A stretch of DNA of 6,148 nucleotides from a virus (lineage: Duplodnaviria; Heunggongvirae; Uroviricota; Caudoviricetes). Made by a program: the position numbers and the translations under genes. The first letter of the stretch is position 1, and the number at the start of each line of letters is the position of its first letter. Below are positions 1-6,148 of the stretch, piece after piece. Where the stretch lies: the IMG/VR virus record IMGVR_UViG_2675903606_000015. One strand, written 5' to 3'. Below the pieces are notes generated by a model that was not told the DNA's origin, did not search any database, and saw nothing but the letters and a program-made list of their open reading frames with translations.

Positions 1-79
1 CGACGGTCGCCGGTTCGGTGACGCTTAATTCATTAAACACCACTCTGGCGGTTTCGGTCATATCCTGCTGTTTTAGCAT
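1..79 (-). CDS. Partial ORF (first 26 codons, runs off the left edge); hypothetical first gene downstream of the Q terminator
   Basis: Minus-strand ATG at 79..77 (second in-frame ATG at 61..59) is open to position 1: MLKQQDMTETARVVFNELSVTEPATV. It lies ~120 bp downstream of the tR'-like hairpin. Absent from the ORF track only because it is short. No family recognised. Confidence 0.3.
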   Translation of the reverse strand, partial: MLKQQDMTETARVVFNELSVTEPATV

Positions 80-202
80 GCCTTTTTCCCTTTTCCGGTT
101 AACGTGACACACCAATAACTCTTGTCGAAAAAGCCAGCAAGCTGAAAGAACGGTATTAATAACCACCAGCGAATTTATTGCGCTGCTGTATATTACGGAC
201 AC

Positions 203-223
203 AAAAAAACCACCTTCCGGTGG
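203..223 (-). terminator. Rho-independent terminator downstream of Q (tR'-like position)
   Basis: On the minus strand, CCACC-GGAA-GGTGG hairpin (plus 210-223) followed directly by a T7 run (plus 203-209). The plus-strand version lacks a U-tract, so it is unidirectional. About 100 nt downstream of the Q stop. Confidence 0.5.
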
Positions 224-320
224 CTTCCTTGTGCGAAAAAACTTGCATTTCGCCTCGCGATACAGCTTTGCGAAGCTTACAGGAATTCAAGCTGTTTCTG
301 CGTAAAAAAGCAAGCTTTTT

Positions 321-863
321 TTATCGAAATGAATCGTGCATAGGTACATAAAGCATGTGTTCAGCCACGGCTAACCAACCTGCAATACGTTTCTCACATG
401 TGCTGAAACACCATTCCGGGTGAGTACGATTTAAACATTCTGCCATTTTTCTCTTACTCATTCCCCGTCCTTCGTACCTTTGCCGGAGAATATTGATTAG
501 CCCGGGATATTCCCCAAGCACCTCACTGATAACGCGATCAATAATCAACGCCTCTGTGTCTGTACAATGTGACAACCAGCTCTTCTGCTTCCCTCTGGTC
601 ATATCCCGAAAAAATGCCTCAAGTTCCGGTTTTTCCAGCCCGGATTTCTTCATGCTGCGTAAAACCTCATTAACTGCTGTTTTCGTCAGCCTTTTCGAAA
701 CCAGTAACCGGTTAAACATATTTCCGGATTTACCCCCACCGATATACGACCACCGCCCCCACATCCGTAATTTCCCCTGGATCCAGACTGCTTCCAGCGT
801 GTTCAGGCGTAAATGTTCGCCGCTTTTGCCTGTAATTTCCGGATATATCATATTTACGCTCAC
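321..863 (-). CDS. Late-gene antiterminator Q-like protein (phage 82/QuuD-like family suspected), 180 aa
   Basis: Intact 180-aa ORF. GTG start at 863 overlaps the rusA stop (GTGA); alternative ATG at 851. Position immediately downstream of rusA and upstream of a terminator is canonical for Q. WG-W motif near the N-terminus and a C-terminal Cys cluster. Family assignment from memory only. Confidence 0.6.
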   Translation of the reverse strand: MSVNMIYPEITGKSGEHLRLNTLEAVWIQGKLRMWGRWSYIGGGKSGNMFNRLLVSKRLTKTAVNEVLRSMKKSGLEKPELEAFFRDMTRGKQKSWLSHCTDTEALIIDRVISEVLGEYPGLINILRQRYEGRGMSKRKMAECLNRTHPEWCFSTCEKRIAGWLAVAEHMLYVPMHDSFR

Positions 864-1219
864 TCACTCTCAATTTTGTAAATCTTCACACCCAGCCGTC
901 CACCAGATACTGGCTGACCACGTACAATATTGATTTCATCAAACTGCTCGTCATCAATGAGCACTCCCGCATGCGTCAGCGCATCCAGCGGTGCTTTCAG
1001 AATATTGTCCAGGTCACGACGACGCTTATCCGGTGGCTCTGCAATAATTTTTATTGCCAGCCGTCCGGACAGGCTTAATTTCAGTCGCTGCTGGCGAACA
1101 ATAAGCGCCACTGCCCGGCGATAACGCTCCCCGGCTTTTGATACAAAATATGTGCTGCCACGGCGTCGCCAGTAGGTGTTCACCGTCGGCGGGTAAGGTA
1201 AAACCAAATCTATGAGCAT
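860..1219 (-). CDS. rusA: RusA-family crossover junction endodeoxyribonuclease (Holliday junction resolvase), copy 1
   Basis: 119-aa ORF with LPYPPTVNTYWRRR and PDKRRRDLDNILKAPLDALTHAGVLIDDEQF motifs that align to E. coli RusA. Strong SD (AAGAGGTGA) 3 nt upstream of ATG at 1219. Confidence 0.85.
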   Translation of the reverse strand: MLIDLVLPYPPTVNTYWRRRGSTYFVSKAGERYRRAVALIVRQQRLKLSLSGRLAIKIIAEPPDKRRRDLDNILKAPLDALTHAGVLIDDEQFDEINIVRGQPVSGGRLGVKIYKIESE

Positions 1220-1231
1220 CAGTCACCTCTT

Positions 1232-2121
1232 TTACCCGAGCACGCCAGTCGCAAAGGCGTGATCAAGAAAACGAAAAATTAACTCAATCTGAGAGCCGTA
1301 CTTTTTCTCAAACTCCAGCGGGTCTGCATGAAGTTCGTTGTGGTGCTCCCGGCACAACGGTAACGTGAAAATATCGTGGGCCTTTGTCCCCATTCCCCCC
1401 TGACCATGACCAATCAGGTGATGCGGATCGTCAGCAGGCTTACCACAACACGCACACGGCTGTGTCTTTACCCAGCGCGTGTATTTCTCGTTAACCCAGC
1501 GGCGACGTTTAGGTCGTTTCATGAAAGATTCCGGAGACTCAGGATCAACGGCAATGCTGACCACCGTCTTTTCCTGTGGTGGGTTCTGTTGCTGGTGGGC
1601 GTGAGGCAGCGGCGCAAGATTTTTTGTGCGCTGTTTCAGTATGCTGGTGGCGGTCTGCTCTCCCGGCACGATGTCGCTTTCACGGTACATTGAGCGGATT
1701 TTTTCCGCACGCAACCCCAGCGAACGACGTAATACCGCTTCCGGTAGCGCGTCCGCCACCTGATTGCGGACCGCCCACCAGGATAATTCAGCCAGAGATA
1801 ATTCACGCTCCTGCGTACCGCTTATTGCGTGACCGATGACGTCAATCATCCAGGCTGTCAGATTTTGTTGAGCAAGCTGCCCGAGTGATTCGGATGTCTG
1901 GTCGCGCAGCTGGTTGTCGCAGTGCCAGCACAACACCATTGCGCCGGTACCATAACGGTGAATGACGGTTTCGCTGTGATGATAATCGCCGTGTGGCCAC
2001 TGGCAGGATTTAATATGGCGCAACAGCCAGTCAGACAATGCACCAGCACCACCAGCAGCACGAATCACCCGTGCGTTACTGAAAAACGGCAGCAATGTTT
2101 TGTCTTCCACTAGCGGCTGGA
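1232..2121 (-). pseudogene. DUF968 (YdfU-like) gene, 5'-truncated copy lacking about the first 53 codons
   Basis: Matches the C-terminal ~296 codons of the full copy at 2630..3679. Homology ends abruptly at 2121, where sequence switches to Q-internal sequence. The track ORF 1232..2137 uses a fortuitous GTG inside the Q fragment with no convincing SD. Stop TAA at 1234..1232. Confidence 0.6.
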
Positions 2122-2261
2122 CCGGATTTACCCCCACCGATATACGACCACCGCCCCCACATCCGTAATTTCCCCTGGATCCAGACTGCTTCCAGCGTGT
2201 TCAGGCGTAAATGTTCGCCGCTTTTGCCTGTAATTTCCGGATATATCATATTTACGCTCAC
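2122..2261 (-). pseudogene. Q-like antiterminator 5' fragment (first 47 codons only)
   Basis: Identical to 724..863. Reading frame runs past the junction at 2121 into out-of-frame DUF968 sequence and stops at 2076 (track ORF 2076..2261, 61 aa). Confidence 0.7.
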
Positions 2262-2617
2262 TCACTCTCAATTTTGTAAATCTTCACACCCAGCCGTCCA
2301 CCAGATACTGGCTGACCACGTACAATATTGATTTCATCAAACTGCTCGTCATCAATGAGCACTCCCGCATGCGTCAGCGCATCCAGCGGTGCTTTCAGAA
2401 TATTGTCCAGGTCACGACGACGCTTATCCGGTGGCTCTGCAATAATTTTTATTGCCAGCCGTCCGGACAGGCTTAATTTCAGTCGCTGCTGGCGAACAAT
2501 AAGCGCCACTGCCCGGCGATAACGCTCCCCGGCTTTTGATACAAAATATGTGCTGCCACGGCGTCGCCAGTAAGTGTTCACCGTCGGCGGGTAAGGTAAA
2601 ACCAAATCTATGAGCAT
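2258..2617 (-). CDS. rusA: RusA-family Holliday junction resolvase, copy 2 (intact)
   Basis: Protein identical to copy 1. One synonymous nucleotide difference (2573 A vs 1175 G). Same SD. Confidence 0.85.
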   Translation of the reverse strand: MLIDLVLPYPPTVNTYWRRRGSTYFVSKAGERYRRAVALIVRQQRLKLSLSGRLAIKIIAEPPDKRRRDLDNILKAPLDALTHAGVLIDDEQFDEINIVRGQPVSGGRLGVKIYKIESE

Positions 2618-2629
2618 CAGTCACCTCTT

Positions 2630-3679
2630 TTACCCGAGCACGCCAGTCGCAAAGGCGTGATCAAGAAAACGAAAAATTAACTCAATCTGAGAGCCGTACT
2701 TTTTCTCAAACTCCAGCGGGTCTGCATGAAGTTCGTTGTGGTGCTCCCGGCACAACGGTAACGTGAAAATATCGTGGGCCTTTGTCCCCATTCCCCCCTG
2801 ACCATGACCAATCAGGTGATGCGGATCGTCAGCAGGCTTACCACAACACGCACACGGCTGTGTCTTTACCCAGCGCGTGTATTTCTCATTTACCCAGCGG
2901 CGACGTTTAGGTCGTTTCATGAAGGATTCCGGAGACTCCGGATCAACGGCAATGCTGACCACCGTCTTTTCCTGTGGTGGGTTCTGTTGCTGGTGGGTGT
3001 GAGACGGTAGCGCAATATTTTTTGTGCGCTGCTTCAGTATGCTGGTGGCGGTCTGTTCTCCCGGTATGATGTCGCTTTCACGGTATACGGAGCGGATTTT
3101 TTCCGCTGGTAATCCCAGCGAACGACGCGCTACTGCCTCAGGTAGTGCATCCACCACCTGATTGCAGGCCGCCCACCAGGATAATTCGGCCAGCGATAAC
3201 TCCCTCTCCTGCGTACCGCTTATTGCGTGACGGATGACATCAATCATCCAAGCAACCAGATTCTGCTGAGCAAGTTGATCGAGTGATTCTGATGTCTGGT
3301 CGCGCAGCTGGTTGTCACAGTGCCAGCACAACACCATTGCGCCGGTACCATAACGGTGAATGACGGTTTCGCTGTGATGATAATCGCCGTGTGGCCACTG
3401 GCAGGATTTAATATGGCGCAACAGCCAGTCAGACAATGCACCAGCACCACCAGCAGCACGAATCACCCGTGCGTTACTGAAAAACGGCAGCAATGTTTTG
3501 TCTTCCACTAGCGGCTGGCGAACGGCAGGAACAACCCCGGACGGCAGATTACGCATGCTTTTCGGTTCCGGCTCCACCAGTACCCGGGTATTGTGGAATA
3601 CCGGCATGGATTCACGGCCCGGCTTAACGATCACCAGCCCGAGTTCCGGTACCAGAACAGGTCGAAGTAATACCCGCAC
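2630..3679 (-). CDS. DUF968 (YdfU-like) protein, full length 349 aa, with C-terminal Cys/His-rich HNH-like zinc-finger motif
   Basis: GTG start at 3679 preceded by GGAGGT SD. C-terminus CACCGKPADDPHHLIGHGQ...LCREHHNELH. Length matches E. coli YdfU (349 aa, from memory). This is the only copy with both N- and C-terminal parts. Confidence 0.7.
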   Translation of the reverse strand: MRVLLRPVLVPELGLVIVKPGRESMPVFHNTRVLVEPEPKSMRNLPSGVVPAVRQPLVEDKTLLPFFSNARVIRAAGGAGALSDWLLRHIKSCQWPHGDYHHSETVIHRYGTGAMVLCWHCDNQLRDQTSESLDQLAQQNLVAWMIDVIRHAISGTQERELSLAELSWWAACNQVVDALPEAVARRSLGLPAEKIRSVYRESDIIPGEQTATSILKQRTKNIALPSHTHQQQNPPQEKTVVSIAVDPESPESFMKRPKRRRWVNEKYTRWVKTQPCACCGKPADDPHHLIGHGQGGMGTKAHDIFTLPLCREHHNELHADPLEFEKKYGSQIELIFRFLDHAFATGVLG

Positions 3680-3680
3680 G

Positions 3681-3892
3681 TTACCTCCAGATGCGTTGCT
3701 GGAATGTGCGGGACGGACGCGGCGGGCGTTCGGAATAAAGGAGCCTGACGTAGATTATCCAGTGACGGTAGTCGAGGCTAAGGGCTTTCTTAAACTCATA
3801 CCCACGTCTGCGGTAGTTATGAATCAGCCATTCGGCCTGTTCTTCAGTGCAGGGATCGTGCTGATACCAGTCATATTTGAATGTGTGAGAAA
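3681..3892 (-). pseudogene. 3' fragment (about 70 C-terminal codons) of the 108-aa hypothetical gene
   Basis: Identical to 4697..4908. Loses homology at the 3892|3893 junction. No start codon of its own. Contains the SD for the downstream DUF968 copy. Confidence 0.6.
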
Positions 3893-4695
3893 GTGTATTT
3901 CTCGTTAACCCAGCGGCGACGTTTAGGTCGTTTCATGAAAGATTCCGGAGACTCAGGATCAACGGCAATGCTGACCACCGTCTTTTCCTGTGGTGGGTTC
4001 TGTTGCTGGTGGGCGTGAGGCAGCGGCGCAAGATTTTTTGTGCGCTGTTTCAGTATGCTGGTGGCGGTCTGCTCTCCCGGCACGATGTCGCTTTCACGGT
4101 ACATTGAGCGGATTTTTTCCGCACGCAACCCCAGCGAACGACGTAATACCGCTTCCGGTAGCGCGTCCGCCACCTGATTGCGGACCGCCCACCAGGATAA
4201 TTCAGCCAGAGATAATTCACGCTCCTGCGTACCGCTTATTGCGTGACCGATGACGTCAATCATCCAGGCTGTCAGATTTTGTTGAGCAAGCTGCCCGAGT
4301 GATTCGGATGTCTGGTCGCGCAGCTGGTTGTCGCAGTGCCAGCACAACACCATTGCGCCGGTACCATAACGGTGAATGACGGTTTCGCTGTGATGATAAT
4401 CGCCGTGTGGCCACTGGCAGGATTTAATATGGCGCAACAGCCAGTCAGACAATGCACCAGCACCACCAGCAGCACGAATCACCCGTGCGTTACTGAAAAA
4501 CGGCAGCAATGTTTTGTCTTCCACTAGCGGCTGGCGAACGGCAGGAACAACCCCGGACGGCAGATTACGCATGCTTTTCGGTTCCGGCTCCACCAGTACC
4601 CGGGTATTGTGGAATACCGGCATGGATTCACGGCCCGGCTTAACGATCACCAGCCCAAGTTCCGGTACCAGAACAGGTCGAAGTAATACCCGCAC
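3893..4695 (-). pseudogene. DUF968 (YdfU-like) gene, 3'-truncated copy (N-terminal 268 codons, lacks the Cys/His domain)
   Basis: GTG start at 4695 with GGAGGT SD. Identical to the copy-1 allele over the shared region. After codon ~268 the frame enters the out-of-frame 108-aa gene fragment and stops at 3871 (track ORF 3871..4695, 274 aa ending FSHIQI). Confidence 0.6.
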
Positions 4696-4696
4696 G

Positions 4697-5023
4697 TTAC
4701 CTCCAGATGCGTTGCTGGAATGTGCGGGACGGACGCGGCGGGCGTTCGGAATAAAGGAGCCTGACGTAGATTATCCAGTGACGGTAGTCGAGGCTAAGGG
4801 CTTTCTTAAACTCATACCCACGTCTGCGGTAGTTATGAATCAGCCATTCGGCCTGTTCTTCAGTGCAGGGATCGTGCTGATACCAGTCATATTTGAATGT
4901 GTGAGAATACCGCCCTTGCCTGCTGGCAGGGGCGATATCAGAATTGTGATGTTTGGTATTGTGCGCCATCGGTTTTCTCTGCTGGCGCAGCAGGTGCCAG
5001 TTGTTCAAGCTGGCGTGCGGCAA
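4697..5023 (-). CDS. Hypothetical phage protein (108 aa from TTG at 5023; about 90 aa if started at ATG 4969), translationally coupled to DUF968
   Basis: Its TAA stop (4699..4697) is one base from the GTG start of DUF968, and the DUF968 SD lies in its last codons. Protein is basic and Trp/Tyr-rich (KYDWYQHDPCTEEQAEWLIHNYRRRGYEF). No family recognised. Confidence 0.45.
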   Translation of the reverse strand: MPHASLNNWHLLRQQRKPMAHNTKHHNSDIAPASRQGRYSHTFKYDWYQHDPCTEEQAEWLIHNYRRRGYEFKKALSLDYRHWIIYVRLLYSERPPRPSRTFQQRIWR

Positions 5024-5038
5024 TATTGTCTCTGATTT

Positions 5039-5069
5039 CTGTTGTCGTCAACAGGCAACGTGCTATCAT
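5039..5069 (+). promoter_or_regulatory. Candidate parDE promoter with overlapping palindromic operator
   Basis: Perfect inverted repeat CTGTTG-N4-CAACAG at 5039-5054 overlaps a -35-like TTGTCG (5042-5047). 16-bp spacer, then -10-like TATCAT (5064-5069), about 35 bp upstream of the parD ATG. On the other strand the same palindrome contains TTGACG, a possible -35 for the divergent phage operon. Confidence 0.3.
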
Positions 5070-5104
5070 CGAATGGTGTTCTATCCTACTCCGTGAGGTT
5101 TACC

Positions 5105-5362
5105 ATGCGTACAACCCAACAATTCAGCATTACATTAACTAACGAAATGGCTGACATGGTGCGCGCCCGTGTGGCTTCCGGTGCCTATGCTTCAGAAAGC
5201 GAGGTCATTCGTGAAGGGCTTCGCGCACTGAATGAGCGCGATAAAGCAATCGAAGCGTGGTTAACGCATTCAGCCGCCCCCTCTCTTGATTCTATCCGCG
5301 AAAACCCAAACAACGGACGCTCCATTTCACAGGTTCGCGCCGCGATTCGATCCGGGAAGTAA
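5105..5362 (+). CDS. parD: ParD-type (COG3609-like, ribbon-helix-helix) type II antitoxin, 85 aa
   Basis: ATG at 5105 with GAGG 8 nt upstream; the track ORF start at 5042 would lie inside the promoter/operator. Sequence VRARVASGAYASESEVIREGLRALNERDKAIEAWL matches the conserved ParD/CopG-like core. Stop is 5 nt before the toxin ATG. Confidence 0.7.
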   Translation: MRTTQQFSITLTNEMADMVRARVASGAYASESEVIREGLRALNERDKAIEAWLTHSAAPSLDSIRENPNNGRSISQVRAAIRSGK

Positions 5363-5367
5363 TCTGC

Positions 5368-5667
5368 ATGACATATGAAGTCATCATTACTCCTGAGGCC
5401 GAACAACAAATAATCAACCTGCACAGGTATATAACGGAGAAAGCAGGGAACGTCATTGCTGACAATTATGCCAATGCGCTTCTTGATTATCTTGATGGGT
5501 TTTCTACATTCCCGCATCGGGGCAATAAACGCGATGATATTCGCCAGGGGATGCGGGTAACTCATTTCCGCCACAGAACGATTATTGCTTTTGCCGTTGA
5601 TAGCAGAAAAGTCTTTATTGTCGGTATCTATCATGGTGGGCAAAGTTATGAAACCGATTTCTTATAA
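5368..5667 (+). CDS. parE: ParE/RelE-superfamily type II toxin, 99 aa
   Basis: Small basic protein directly downstream of the RHH antitoxin. C-terminal FPHRGNKRDDIRQGMRVTHFRHRTIIAFAVDSRKVFIVGIYHGGQSY resembles the ParE fold signature. Classic antitoxin-then-toxin operon order. Confidence 0.7.
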   Translation: MTYEVIITPEAEQQIINLHRYITEKAGNVIADNYANALLDYLDGFSTFPHRGNKRDDIRQGMRVTHFRHRTIIAFAVDSRKVFIVGIYHGGQSYETDFL

Positions 5668-5740
5668 ACTTTTACCCACATCATTCCGGTGTTAGAATTA
5701 ACCGTCCGCCCCCCTCTCTTACTGGCGGATTCGTAGGCTA

Positions 5741-5775
5741 TATAAATCAAAGATCCCGGCTCATGTTTATGTCGG
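5741..5775 (+). terminator. Intrinsic terminator after parE, possibly bidirectional
   Basis: Stem AGATCCCGGC (5741-5750) / GTCGGGATCT (5761-5770) with a 10-nt loop, followed by T6 (5770-5775). On the minus strand the same hairpin is followed by TTGATTTATATA, so it may also end the converging minus-strand ORFs. Confidence 0.6.
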
Positions 5776-5792
5776 GATCTTTTTTCGGCGAT

Positions 5793-5876
5793 TTATCCCC
5801 AGCGGCAAATCGAATACACCACCAGCGCCACCGCCATCGCAATTCCTACCGTTGTGAATGCTTCAGGCCAGGTCAT
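5793..5876 (-). CDS. 27-codon hydrophobic small ORF (predicted single-pass membrane peptide)
   Basis: MTWPEAFTTVGIAMAVALVVYSICRWG. Its ATG (5876..5874) overlaps the TGA stop of the upstream ORF (5875..5873) as ATGA. Ends with TAA at 5795..5793, just before the terminator. Not in the ORF track because it is short. Confidence 0.4.
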   Translation of the reverse strand: MTWPEAFTTVGIAMAVALVVYSICRWG

Positions 5877-6148
5877 CGTAAAATATCCTCCACGCTTATC
5901 AGTCCGTTCCGCTCCAGATAACTCATCGCCTTATCCGGTAATTTGCAGTCTGGCTTCGCTTTCCTCAGTTGCCAGGTTAACTGCTTTACCAGCATGGTTA
6001 ACTCATCGACCAGACGCTGATATCCCACTGGTTTGTATTCATGCAATTTACCGGCTGGCTCTGCTGCCAGCGATACCAGTGCGATTTCCAGAACAGCAAT
6101 ATCCATCTTATATGTGCGGATGATGTCATGGTCGATTGTGCCCGGTAT
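5873..6148 (-). CDS. Partial ORF of unknown function (C-terminal 91 codons; N-terminus beyond the right edge)
   Basis: Minus-strand frame is open from 6148 with no stop; the track shows only the part from the internal Met at 6106. Protein-like composition (…YLERNGLISVEDILR), whereas the antisense ORF 5854..6123 is Pro/Ser/Leu-rich and shadow-like. Confidence 0.45.
   Translation of the reverse strand: MPGTIDHDIIRTYKMDIAVLEIALVSLAAEPAGKLHEYKPVGYQRLVDELTMLVKQLTWQLRKAKPDCKLPDKAMSYLERNGLISVEDILR

Follow-up and report, generated by a model that had tools for sequence, protein, structure and literature searches.

The question raised by this locus is whether a kilobase-scale, head-to-tail repeat in a prophage region of Escherichia coli records a duplication that took place in a cell, or whether it came about when the sequence was assembled. 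The window, by which is meant the whole stretch of DNA that was analysed, is the entire 6148-bp contig CYAZ01000130.1 of the draft E. coli assembly GCA_001284505.1. The original prediction held that positions 724-2121 are repeated head-to-tail at 2122-3519, and self-comparison of the window does recover this direct repeat (724-2121 vs 2122-3519) at an offset of 1398; however, the copies are 96.3% identical rather than exact, with 52 mismatches over 1398 positions, which fall at 1175, in a cluster of 50 at 1490-1919 (where identity is ~89%) and at the junction base 2121. Tandem Repeats Finder has a longest period of 500, and its blank result is accordingly uninformative on a repeat of 1398 bp. 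Examined as a whole, the window resolves into three blocks and two joins, of which the repeat is only one part, and each block can be placed without gaps on a comparison locus (L001):

1..2120: contig block I, single-copy coordinates 1-2120, collinear with L001 3001-5120 and ending at an N; it contains the region downstream of Q, the Q/DUF1133 gene, rusA, and the allele-1 DUF968 from its codon 54 onward to the stop codon
2121: single-N scaffold gap, "junction 1"; N in the stored CYAZ01000130.1, A in the window
2122..3891: contig block II, single-copy coordinates 724-2493, mapping to L001 3724-5493; a redundant contig with a variant allele, holding the first 46-47 codons of Q, rusA, a complete DUF968 gene whose centre is allele 2, and 212 bp of upstream sequence
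3892: single-N scaffold gap, "junction 2"; N in the stored record, A in the window
3893..6148: contig block III, single-copy coordinates 1479-3734, mapping to L001 4479-6734; it carries codons 1-268 of the allele-1 DUF968, a gene for a 90-aa hypothetical protein, ParD/ParE, and a partial open reading frame at the contig end

When placed on L001 in this manner, neighbouring blocks overlap by 1397 bp (I and II) and by 1015 bp (II and III). The second of these overlaps is seen within the window at an offset of 1016, pairing 2877-3891 with 3893-4907, and at an offset of 2414 blocks I and III are identical over exactly 642 bp (1479-2120 and 3893-4534). Exact repeats of 451, 314, 642, 323, and 250 bp are thus found inside one 6-kb contig, and repeats this long could probably have been crossed by a short-read contig only by paired-end scaffolding.

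The identity of the bases at the two joins is central to the interpretation of this arrangement. The window departs from the stored CYAZ01000130.1 at two positions only, 2121 and 3892, at both of which the record has N and the window has A; these are also the only two Ns in the record, and each sits exactly where collinearity with the single-copy locus, and with the repeat, breaks. As both positions are N in the record, both apparent duplication junctions are single-N scaffold joins, and no junction was sequenced. It had been pointed out in the original prediction that base 2121 matches neither parent and that microhomology is lacking, and both observations hold: the parental bases are T at 723 and C at 3519, base 3892 is similarly unlike either of its parents (T at 4908, C at 2876 and 1478), and microhomology is absent at both joins. 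The proposal of illegitimate end-joining that was drawn from the orphan base was reasonable on the letters given, but the orphan base is a rendered N, and it is the other option offered, that of an assembly join (with an assembly artefact as the outcome that would tell against duplication), that is backed by the N at 2121. Chimeric ligation of an A-tailed fragment was entertained as a source of the orphan A and became moot, the A being an N in the record. Taken together, the apparent tandem duplication is read here as a scaffold artefact, in which overlapping contigs of one E. coli prophage region were strung together, with a probability of approximately 0.93. Directly observed are the N at either join, the collinearity of the three blocks, the identity of block I with block III where they overlap, and the absence of either junction from the other collections searched.

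That absence was established with 200-bp probes over either junction, for which none of 5,426 complete E. coli genomes gave a match crossing the join, and with junction patterns permitting any base at the join, which gave 0 matches in viral, metagenome, and species-representative genome collections. The same absence would also be expected of a private, recent duplication, and by itself it argues only weakly. An account in which the array is real would have illegitimate recombination amplify DUF968-rusA to two or three head-to-tail copies, with the Ns masking uncalled bases, and is considered very improbable; the same holds when it is phrased as a genuine double tandem duplication (units of ~1398 and ~1016 bp) that left one unresolved base per junction and was followed by conversion of the middle copy from a paralogous DUF968 allele, a history to which we would give only a slim chance. 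Tandem duplications do occur in bacteria, the I-II-III order and orientation were presumably picked from read-pair links, and an ambiguous call within truly sequenced DNA might in principle also be written as one N. Such an array is formally attainable by two illegitimate duplications plus gene conversion over at least 2573-3641, inside block II. However, this requires three independent rare events, and it must further accommodate the placement of both of the contig's only Ns exactly on the junctions, the lack of microhomology at either one, and the lack of the junctions from the complete genomes and the three other collections. In addition, a true junction should yield reads and k-mers that assemble through it, not two contig ends. 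The window does resemble genuine bacterial tandem duplications in having a head-to-tail unit of kilobase scale with a junction inside two genes. However, in a genuine duplication the novel junction is itself sequenced and commonly shows short homology, and the copies are identical at first, whereas here there is an N at the join with a contig end on either side, no microhomology, and a 50-site allele patch that separates the copies.

Further indication that the scaffold conceals an ordinary locus comes from removing the redundancy. Merging blocks I and III gives a single-copy locus of 3734 bp that carries ParDE, the hypothetical gene, DUF968, rusA, and DUF1133/Q, and that is 99.87-99.89% identical, end to end, to single-copy loci of other E. 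coli, one on a 4.93-Mb contig and one on a 1.11-Mb scaffold. Individually, block I is 99.86-99.91% identical to loci L010 and L007, and block III 99.87-99.91% identical to the same two loci. The DUF968 protein of the merged locus has an exact match on 15 other contigs, and the assembly index has the same 176-aa Q protein in 700 of its blocks; all 10 of the 10 other loci bearing this Q protein have one DUF968-rusA-Q each. In more than 800 complete E. coli genomes, the full length of the window is accounted for by ~3.73 kb of genomic sequence, which amounts to a single copy. No complete E. coli genome or phage record is more than 99.2% identical to any block, and no phage record covers at least 80% of the window. 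Paralogous copies of the module are common within an E. coli genome, in up to 10 places. The de-duplicated locus is equal in gene content and order to the late-regulatory lambdoid prophage module of STEC/EPEC type, DUF968 (YdfU-like)-RusA-DUF1133/Q, and 99.9% identical to single-copy loci of other E. coli; no difference from that module is left after removal of the artefact, the extra copies occurring in this scaffold only. As a lambdoid-prophage module, the locus beneath the artefact is ordinary and widespread, and it presents no biological novelty.

The consequences of the two joins for the gene models may be followed in the features of the window:

321..851, minus strand: DUF1133/Q-like antiterminator gene (PF06576, 3.9e-110, 365.5 bits, full length; PF06530, 1.5e-08)
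860..1219, minus strand: rusA, RusA family Holliday-junction resolvase (PF05866, 1.6e-16; RusA annotation in L001)
1232..2137, minus strand: "headless" DUF968 open reading frame, artefactual, 301 aa (PF06147, 5.5e-78)
2122..2261, minus strand: 5' fragment of Q (PF06576 positions 1-43 only; identical to 724-863)
2258..2617, minus strand: "second rusA", from redundant contig II (one synonymous difference, 2573 vs 1175)
2630..3679, minus strand: full-length DUF968 of block II, 349 aa, mosaic allele (PF06147, 9.7e-78)
3871..4695, minus strand: "tailless" DUF968 open reading frame, artefactual, 274 aa (PF06147 positions 1-93 only)
5042..5667, plus strand: ParD-family antitoxin and ParE/RelE-family toxin (PF03693, 2.3e-07; PF05016, 4.5e-10; likewise annotated in L001)

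The ParD/ParE pair lies outside the artefact and is given as context only. No tRNA and no Rfam match was found in the window, and its promoter and terminator counts equal the expectation from shuffled sequence.

The Q gene at 321..851 is the sole real copy in the contig; it is annotated at 176 aa in other genomes, the mechanical open reading frame being 180 aa with a GTG start at 863, and its antiterminator role is predicted from sequence (PF06530, 35 bits against a cutoff of 26). The codon arithmetic given for junction 1, DUF968 codon ~54 against Q codon 47, is likewise correct, as codon 54 of the 349-aa frame contains base 3518, and codon 47 of the 180-aa, GTG-started frame (codon 43 of the 176-aa frame) contains base 724. 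A biological duplication as the origin of the second rusA, the truncated Q, and the headless DUF968 is not supported, because the junction base is an N between contigs, and the three supposed gene gains are false, being products of the scaffold joins. The Q fragment at 2122..2261 is a contig end and not a truncated gene. The two rusA frames, 860-1219 and 2258-2617, encode identical proteins (the RusA profile PF05866 scores 61.5 bits against a cutoff of 22.8). In the 301-aa frame, real DUF968 codons 54-349 run through the N at 2121 into the Q fragment, and in the 274-aa frame, real codons 1-268 run through the N at 3892 into unrelated sequence. Profile PF06147 is covered over positions 1-171 of 171, at 260-261 bits and above its curated threshold, in the 301-aa and 349-aa frames, and over 1-93 only in the 274-aa frame, because the latter runs into the N. 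The record translation of this 274-aa frame, the one N-crossing frame among those looked up, is flagged as unequal to the query.

Several origins may be considered for block II, which departs from blocks I and III at 52 sites, namely 2573, 50 within 2888-3317, and 3641, such that 50 of the 52 are packed into 430 bp; these are the copy-specific differences by which a heterotype copy escapes collapse. As third codon positions account for 32 of the 50, the differences display the pattern of a natural allele and not of drift following duplication. The flanks nearly match the main locus, with 1 difference in 766 bp on the left and 1 in 574 bp on the right, and in its centre, 2877-3337, the block matches the DUF968 gene of a ydfT-type prophage in O145 RM9872 at 100% identity. 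Targeted mutagenesis of the kind produced by diversity-generating retroelements (DGR) was considered for the 50-site patch and rejected, as the substitutions are of mixed type with transitions predominating, and they are not specific to adenines; it is also countered by the perfect identity of the patch to a natural allele in other genomes. The encoded 349-aa protein has 15 amino acid differences from that of allele 1.

Within the scaffold-artefact reading, it is possible, although on balance doubtful, that block II is a chimeric contig whose consensus path alternates between the main locus and the DUF968 of a ydfT-type prophage, in which case the mosaic allele would be absent from the cell. 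Consistent with this, the mosaic protein is confined to this contig among ~15 billion proteins, the whole block reaches at best 95.5% identity to any complete genome, its left crossover has no complete genome at 100% (best 98.4%), and the centre belongs to a different prophage type. However, the sequence common to both parental types at the crossovers, with locus L003 as donor, is only 11 and 20 bp, too short for a path switch in a de Bruijn graph at usual k, and DUF968 genes are naturally mosaic, making a rare genuine recombinant equally plausible. An unlikely variant would derive block II from a mixed culture or a contaminating second E. coli strain, which would make this a true "heterotype" false duplication. 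Near-identical flanks about a differing centre are what two alleles of one locus in two strains would present, and the restriction of the block II protein to this contig is compatible with such a source. However, the window has no sign of contamination, and a paralogue within the same genome, where the module may occupy up to 10 places, fits equally well.

The scaffold-artefact reading allows the construction of a model by which the window may have arisen. This model proposes that short-read draft assembly of an E. coli isolate gave three overlapping contigs of one lambdoid-prophage late-regulatory region, where contigs I and III would be the two halves of the true single-copy locus, with 642 identical bases in common, and contig II a redundant contig from its middle, its DUF968 allele contributed by a paralogous prophage within the genome, by a chimeric consensus of paralogues, or by a second strain. 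Since the ends of contig II are identical to the true locus, read pairs would connect it to contig I on one side and to contig III on the other, at gap sizes estimated as strongly negative, and the scaffolder, finding no end-to-end overlap, would put a single N at each join. In SSPACE and ABySS, a single N denotes a negative-gap join without a detected overlap; we infer the read-pair, negative-gap mechanism, and with it the identity of the scaffolder. Each N became A when the window was prepared, and reading the scaffold as continuous DNA generates the false tandem duplications of 1398 and 1016 bp together with the false second rusA, the Q stub, and the headless and tailless DUF968. The primary assembler, however, left contigs I and III unmerged despite their 642 identical bp, which counts against the artefact reading. 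In single-copy coordinates the contig end points are 724, 1479, 2120, and 2493, and no fixed k-mer distance separates contig ends from allele differences, the offsets being 11, 201, 250, and 451 bp.

A gap lying between duplicated copies on one scaffold ranks among the primary hallmarks of a false duplication (Ko et al. 2022, Genome Biol, PMC9516828). As in the cases described there, the window presents two or three gap-separated versions of one region side by side with allele-like substitutions, and it yields false gene gains and fragmented gene models. However, those cases concern haplotype copies in diploid vertebrates, whereas in this haploid bacterium a paralogous prophage module is the most likely identity of the divergent copy, with a chimera or contaminant as the alternative; in addition, the gaps here are single Ns, hidden by the rendering of the window. 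For quality control, this means that an N shown as a normal base can make a scaffold join mimic a non-templated, microhomology-free junction of illegitimate end-joining, and orphan bases at repeat boundaries are suspect wherever an N was replaced by a base. The artefact has already entered public protein databases, where the 274-aa tailless DUF968, the 301-aa headless DUF968, and a 57-aa Q stub are called as genes, and the 349-aa DUF968, which is possibly chimeric, appears under accessions CTT83763.1 and WP_053879785.1.

The repeat lies in the letters of the window and is not a feature of the genome. At a probability of roughly 0.93, it is a false duplication, produced when redundant contigs from a prophage region present in several copies were scaffolded across single-N gaps. 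Exact-protein look-up identified the window as contig CYAZ01000130.1 (6148 bp) in full, part of the draft assembly GCA_001284505.1; the contig's proteins are named Escherichia coli by their sources. A position-by-position comparison of the window with this contig's stored record gave exactly two differences, at 2121 and 3892, where the record has N and the window has A. These are the contig's only Ns, and they fall exactly where the window ceases to be collinear with the single-copy locus, one at each of the two break points. What look like "junctions" are therefore scaffold joins of separate contigs, and the junction sequence was never determined at either position. As the original prediction held, base 2121 is unlike either flanking parent and without microhomology, and the same is true of the A at 3892. 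This orphan A is, however, the mere rendering of an N, apparently replaced during preparation of the window, and the illegitimate end-joining read from it falls away; the assembly join offered as an alternative is borne out by the Ns at both joins and by collinearity of three blocks with the single-copy locus.

Self-comparison of the window does place a direct, head-to-tail repeat at an offset of 1398 (724-2121 against 2122-3519), but the copy is neither exact nor isolated. Mismatches occupy 52 of 1398 positions (one at 1175, 50 in 1490-1919, where identity is about 89%, and one at the junction base), and two further overlaps exist, at offset 1016 (2877-3891 against 3893-4907) and at offset 2414 (a 642-bp exact match, 1479-2120 against 3893-4534). 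Together, the repeat and these overlaps resolve the window into three blocks parted by two single bases:

Blocks of the window and their positions on the merged single-copy locus
1-2120: block I, single-copy 1-2120
2121: join, single-copy not applicable
2122-3891: block II, single-copy 724-2493
3892: join, single-copy not applicable
3893-6148: block III, single-copy 1479-3734

In more than 800 complete E. coli genomes, 100% of the window is covered by about 3.73 kb of the genome's own DNA, that is, by a single copy. The blocks map ungapped onto L001, a comparison prophage locus from another E. coli, at 3001-5120 (I), 3724-5493 (II) and 4479-6734 (III). Contigs I and III, left unmerged in the assembly despite 642 identical bases, merge into 3734 bp that are collinear end to end with two single-copy loci, at 99.87% with L010 (UGDK01000002.1, a 4.93-Mb contig) and at 99.89% with L007 (KE702261.1, a 1.11-Mb scaffold). 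The DUF968 protein of the merged locus has exact matches on 15 other contigs, including the 4.93-Mb one, and each of the ten further loci retrieved through their identical Q protein has DUF968-rusA-Q only once.

The small remaining probability falls to a genuine tandem array in which the junction bases had not been called. Such an array would require two independent events without homology, gene conversion of the middle copy alone, and a chance placement of the contig's only two ambiguous bases exactly on both junctions. Against 5,426 complete E. coli genomes, every match to a 200-bp probe centred on either junction ended at the junction and none spanned it, and junction patterns (31-32 specified bases, any base at the join) had 0 matches in viral, metagenome and species-representative genome collections. 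Such absence is supporting evidence only, because a recent duplication private to this isolate would be missing there too; the N result is decisive. A short-read contig could not cross, without scaffolding, the exact repeats of 451, 314, 642, 323 and 250 bp that the 6148-bp contig contains.

The false duplication may have arisen as follows. Block II matches the true locus exactly at both ends, over 451 bp (left) and 250 bp (right), so that read pairs would tie it to I on one side and to III on the other, with gap sizes estimated as strongly negative (about -1397 and -1015 bp). A greedy scaffolder that found no end-to-end overlap would then have joined the contigs by a placeholder; in SSPACE and ABySS, such joins are by convention written as a single n. 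A gap separating duplicated copies within one scaffold is a primary hallmark of false duplication, which in turn produces false gene gains (PMC9516828). The contig ends, at single-copy 724, 1479, 2120 and 2493, lie 451, 11, 201 and 250 bp from the nearest allele differences, and these offsets share no common k.

The minus-strand reading frames concerned are:

321-851 (863), minus: Q/DUF1133
860-1219 and 2258-2617, minus: rusA, two ORFs with identical proteins
1232-2137, 2630-3679 and 3871-4695, minus: DUF968 ORFs

The codon arithmetic and gene identifications put forward for these frames agree with the ORFs and Pfam. A tandem duplication creating a second rusA, a truncated Q and a headless DUF968 does not survive, the junctions being single-N scaffold joins; the apparent gains of a second rusA, a Q stub, and headless and tailless DUF968 ORFs are false. 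Gene callers do call the artefactual minus-strand ORFs of 274 aa (3871-4695), 301 aa (1232-2137) and 57 aa (~2076-2249), which run into or across the Ns, so that public protein collections contain them as what look like truncated DUF968 and DUF1133 proteins. The 274-aa ORF, which crosses 3892, was flagged in the look-up as differing in translation from the query, which fits an N there. In practice, an N replaced by a base can imitate an illegitimate-recombination junction, and other windows treated in this way may hide similar gaps.

Block II covers the middle of the same locus, with 52 sites at which it departs from I and III. Among the 50 clustered differences, most (32) fall at third codon positions, and of the codon changes 25 are synonymous and 15 non-synonymous, a pattern that is the signature of a natural allele and not of post-duplication mutation. 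Positions 2877-3337 (461 bp) are 100% identical to DUF968 of a ydfT-type prophage in E. coli O145 RM9872 and in other O145 and O157 genomes, a donor type in which DUF968 lies directly upstream of ydfT, without rusA; the flanks of block II are of the main-locus type. No complete genome exceeded 95.5% against the whole of block II, or 98.4% against its left crossover. Block II is thus one of three things: a real prophage copy, paralogous or recombinant, at another place in the genome; sequence from a second strain; or a chimeric consensus contig, against which stands the shared sequence of only 11 and 20 bp at the crossovers (with the ydfT-type locus L003 as donor). Its mosaic 349-aa DUF968 (CTT83763.1 / WP_053879785.1), seen in this contig only, is a rare recombinant, or else the product of a chimeric contig that has reached RefSeq as a WP_ protein.

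In lambdoid prophages of E. coli this locus is a standard late-regulatory module, with minus-strand genes for a 90-aa hypothetical protein, DUF968 (349 aa, YdfU-like), RusA and DUF1133/Q, and a ParD/ParE pair on the plus strand. The DUF968 C-terminus (1232-1500, 2630-2900) has a sub-threshold match to PF16784 (HNHc_6, a putative HNH nuclease family; 23 bits, cutoff 26.6) and carries Cys/His-rich motifs (CACCGK...HH...CREHH), hinting at an HNH-type nuclease fold adjoining the RusA resolvase. The ParD-family antitoxin and ParE/RelE-family toxin (5042-5667, plus strand) are divergent from the DUF968 operon and kept at the same place in five comparison loci (L001, L005, L007, L010, L012). This position looks like a swappable slot, since other same-Q prophages hold RelE/HTH plus hok, or HTH/Peptidase_M78 plus hok, there. 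About 320 bp 3' of Q, up to the contig end (1-320), are without a called gene; in related loci, Q is followed by a 65-aa ORF, next by a DNA methyltransferase or AraC-type gene and, more distally, by tRNA genes. The window itself contains neither a tRNA nor an Rfam family. At the other end (5873-6148, minus strand), a hypothetical ORF overruns the contig end, with 91 residues called in the record copy; the longest closed ORF there has 77 aa and no Pfam match, and the counterpart in related loci is a 114-aa hypothetical protein.
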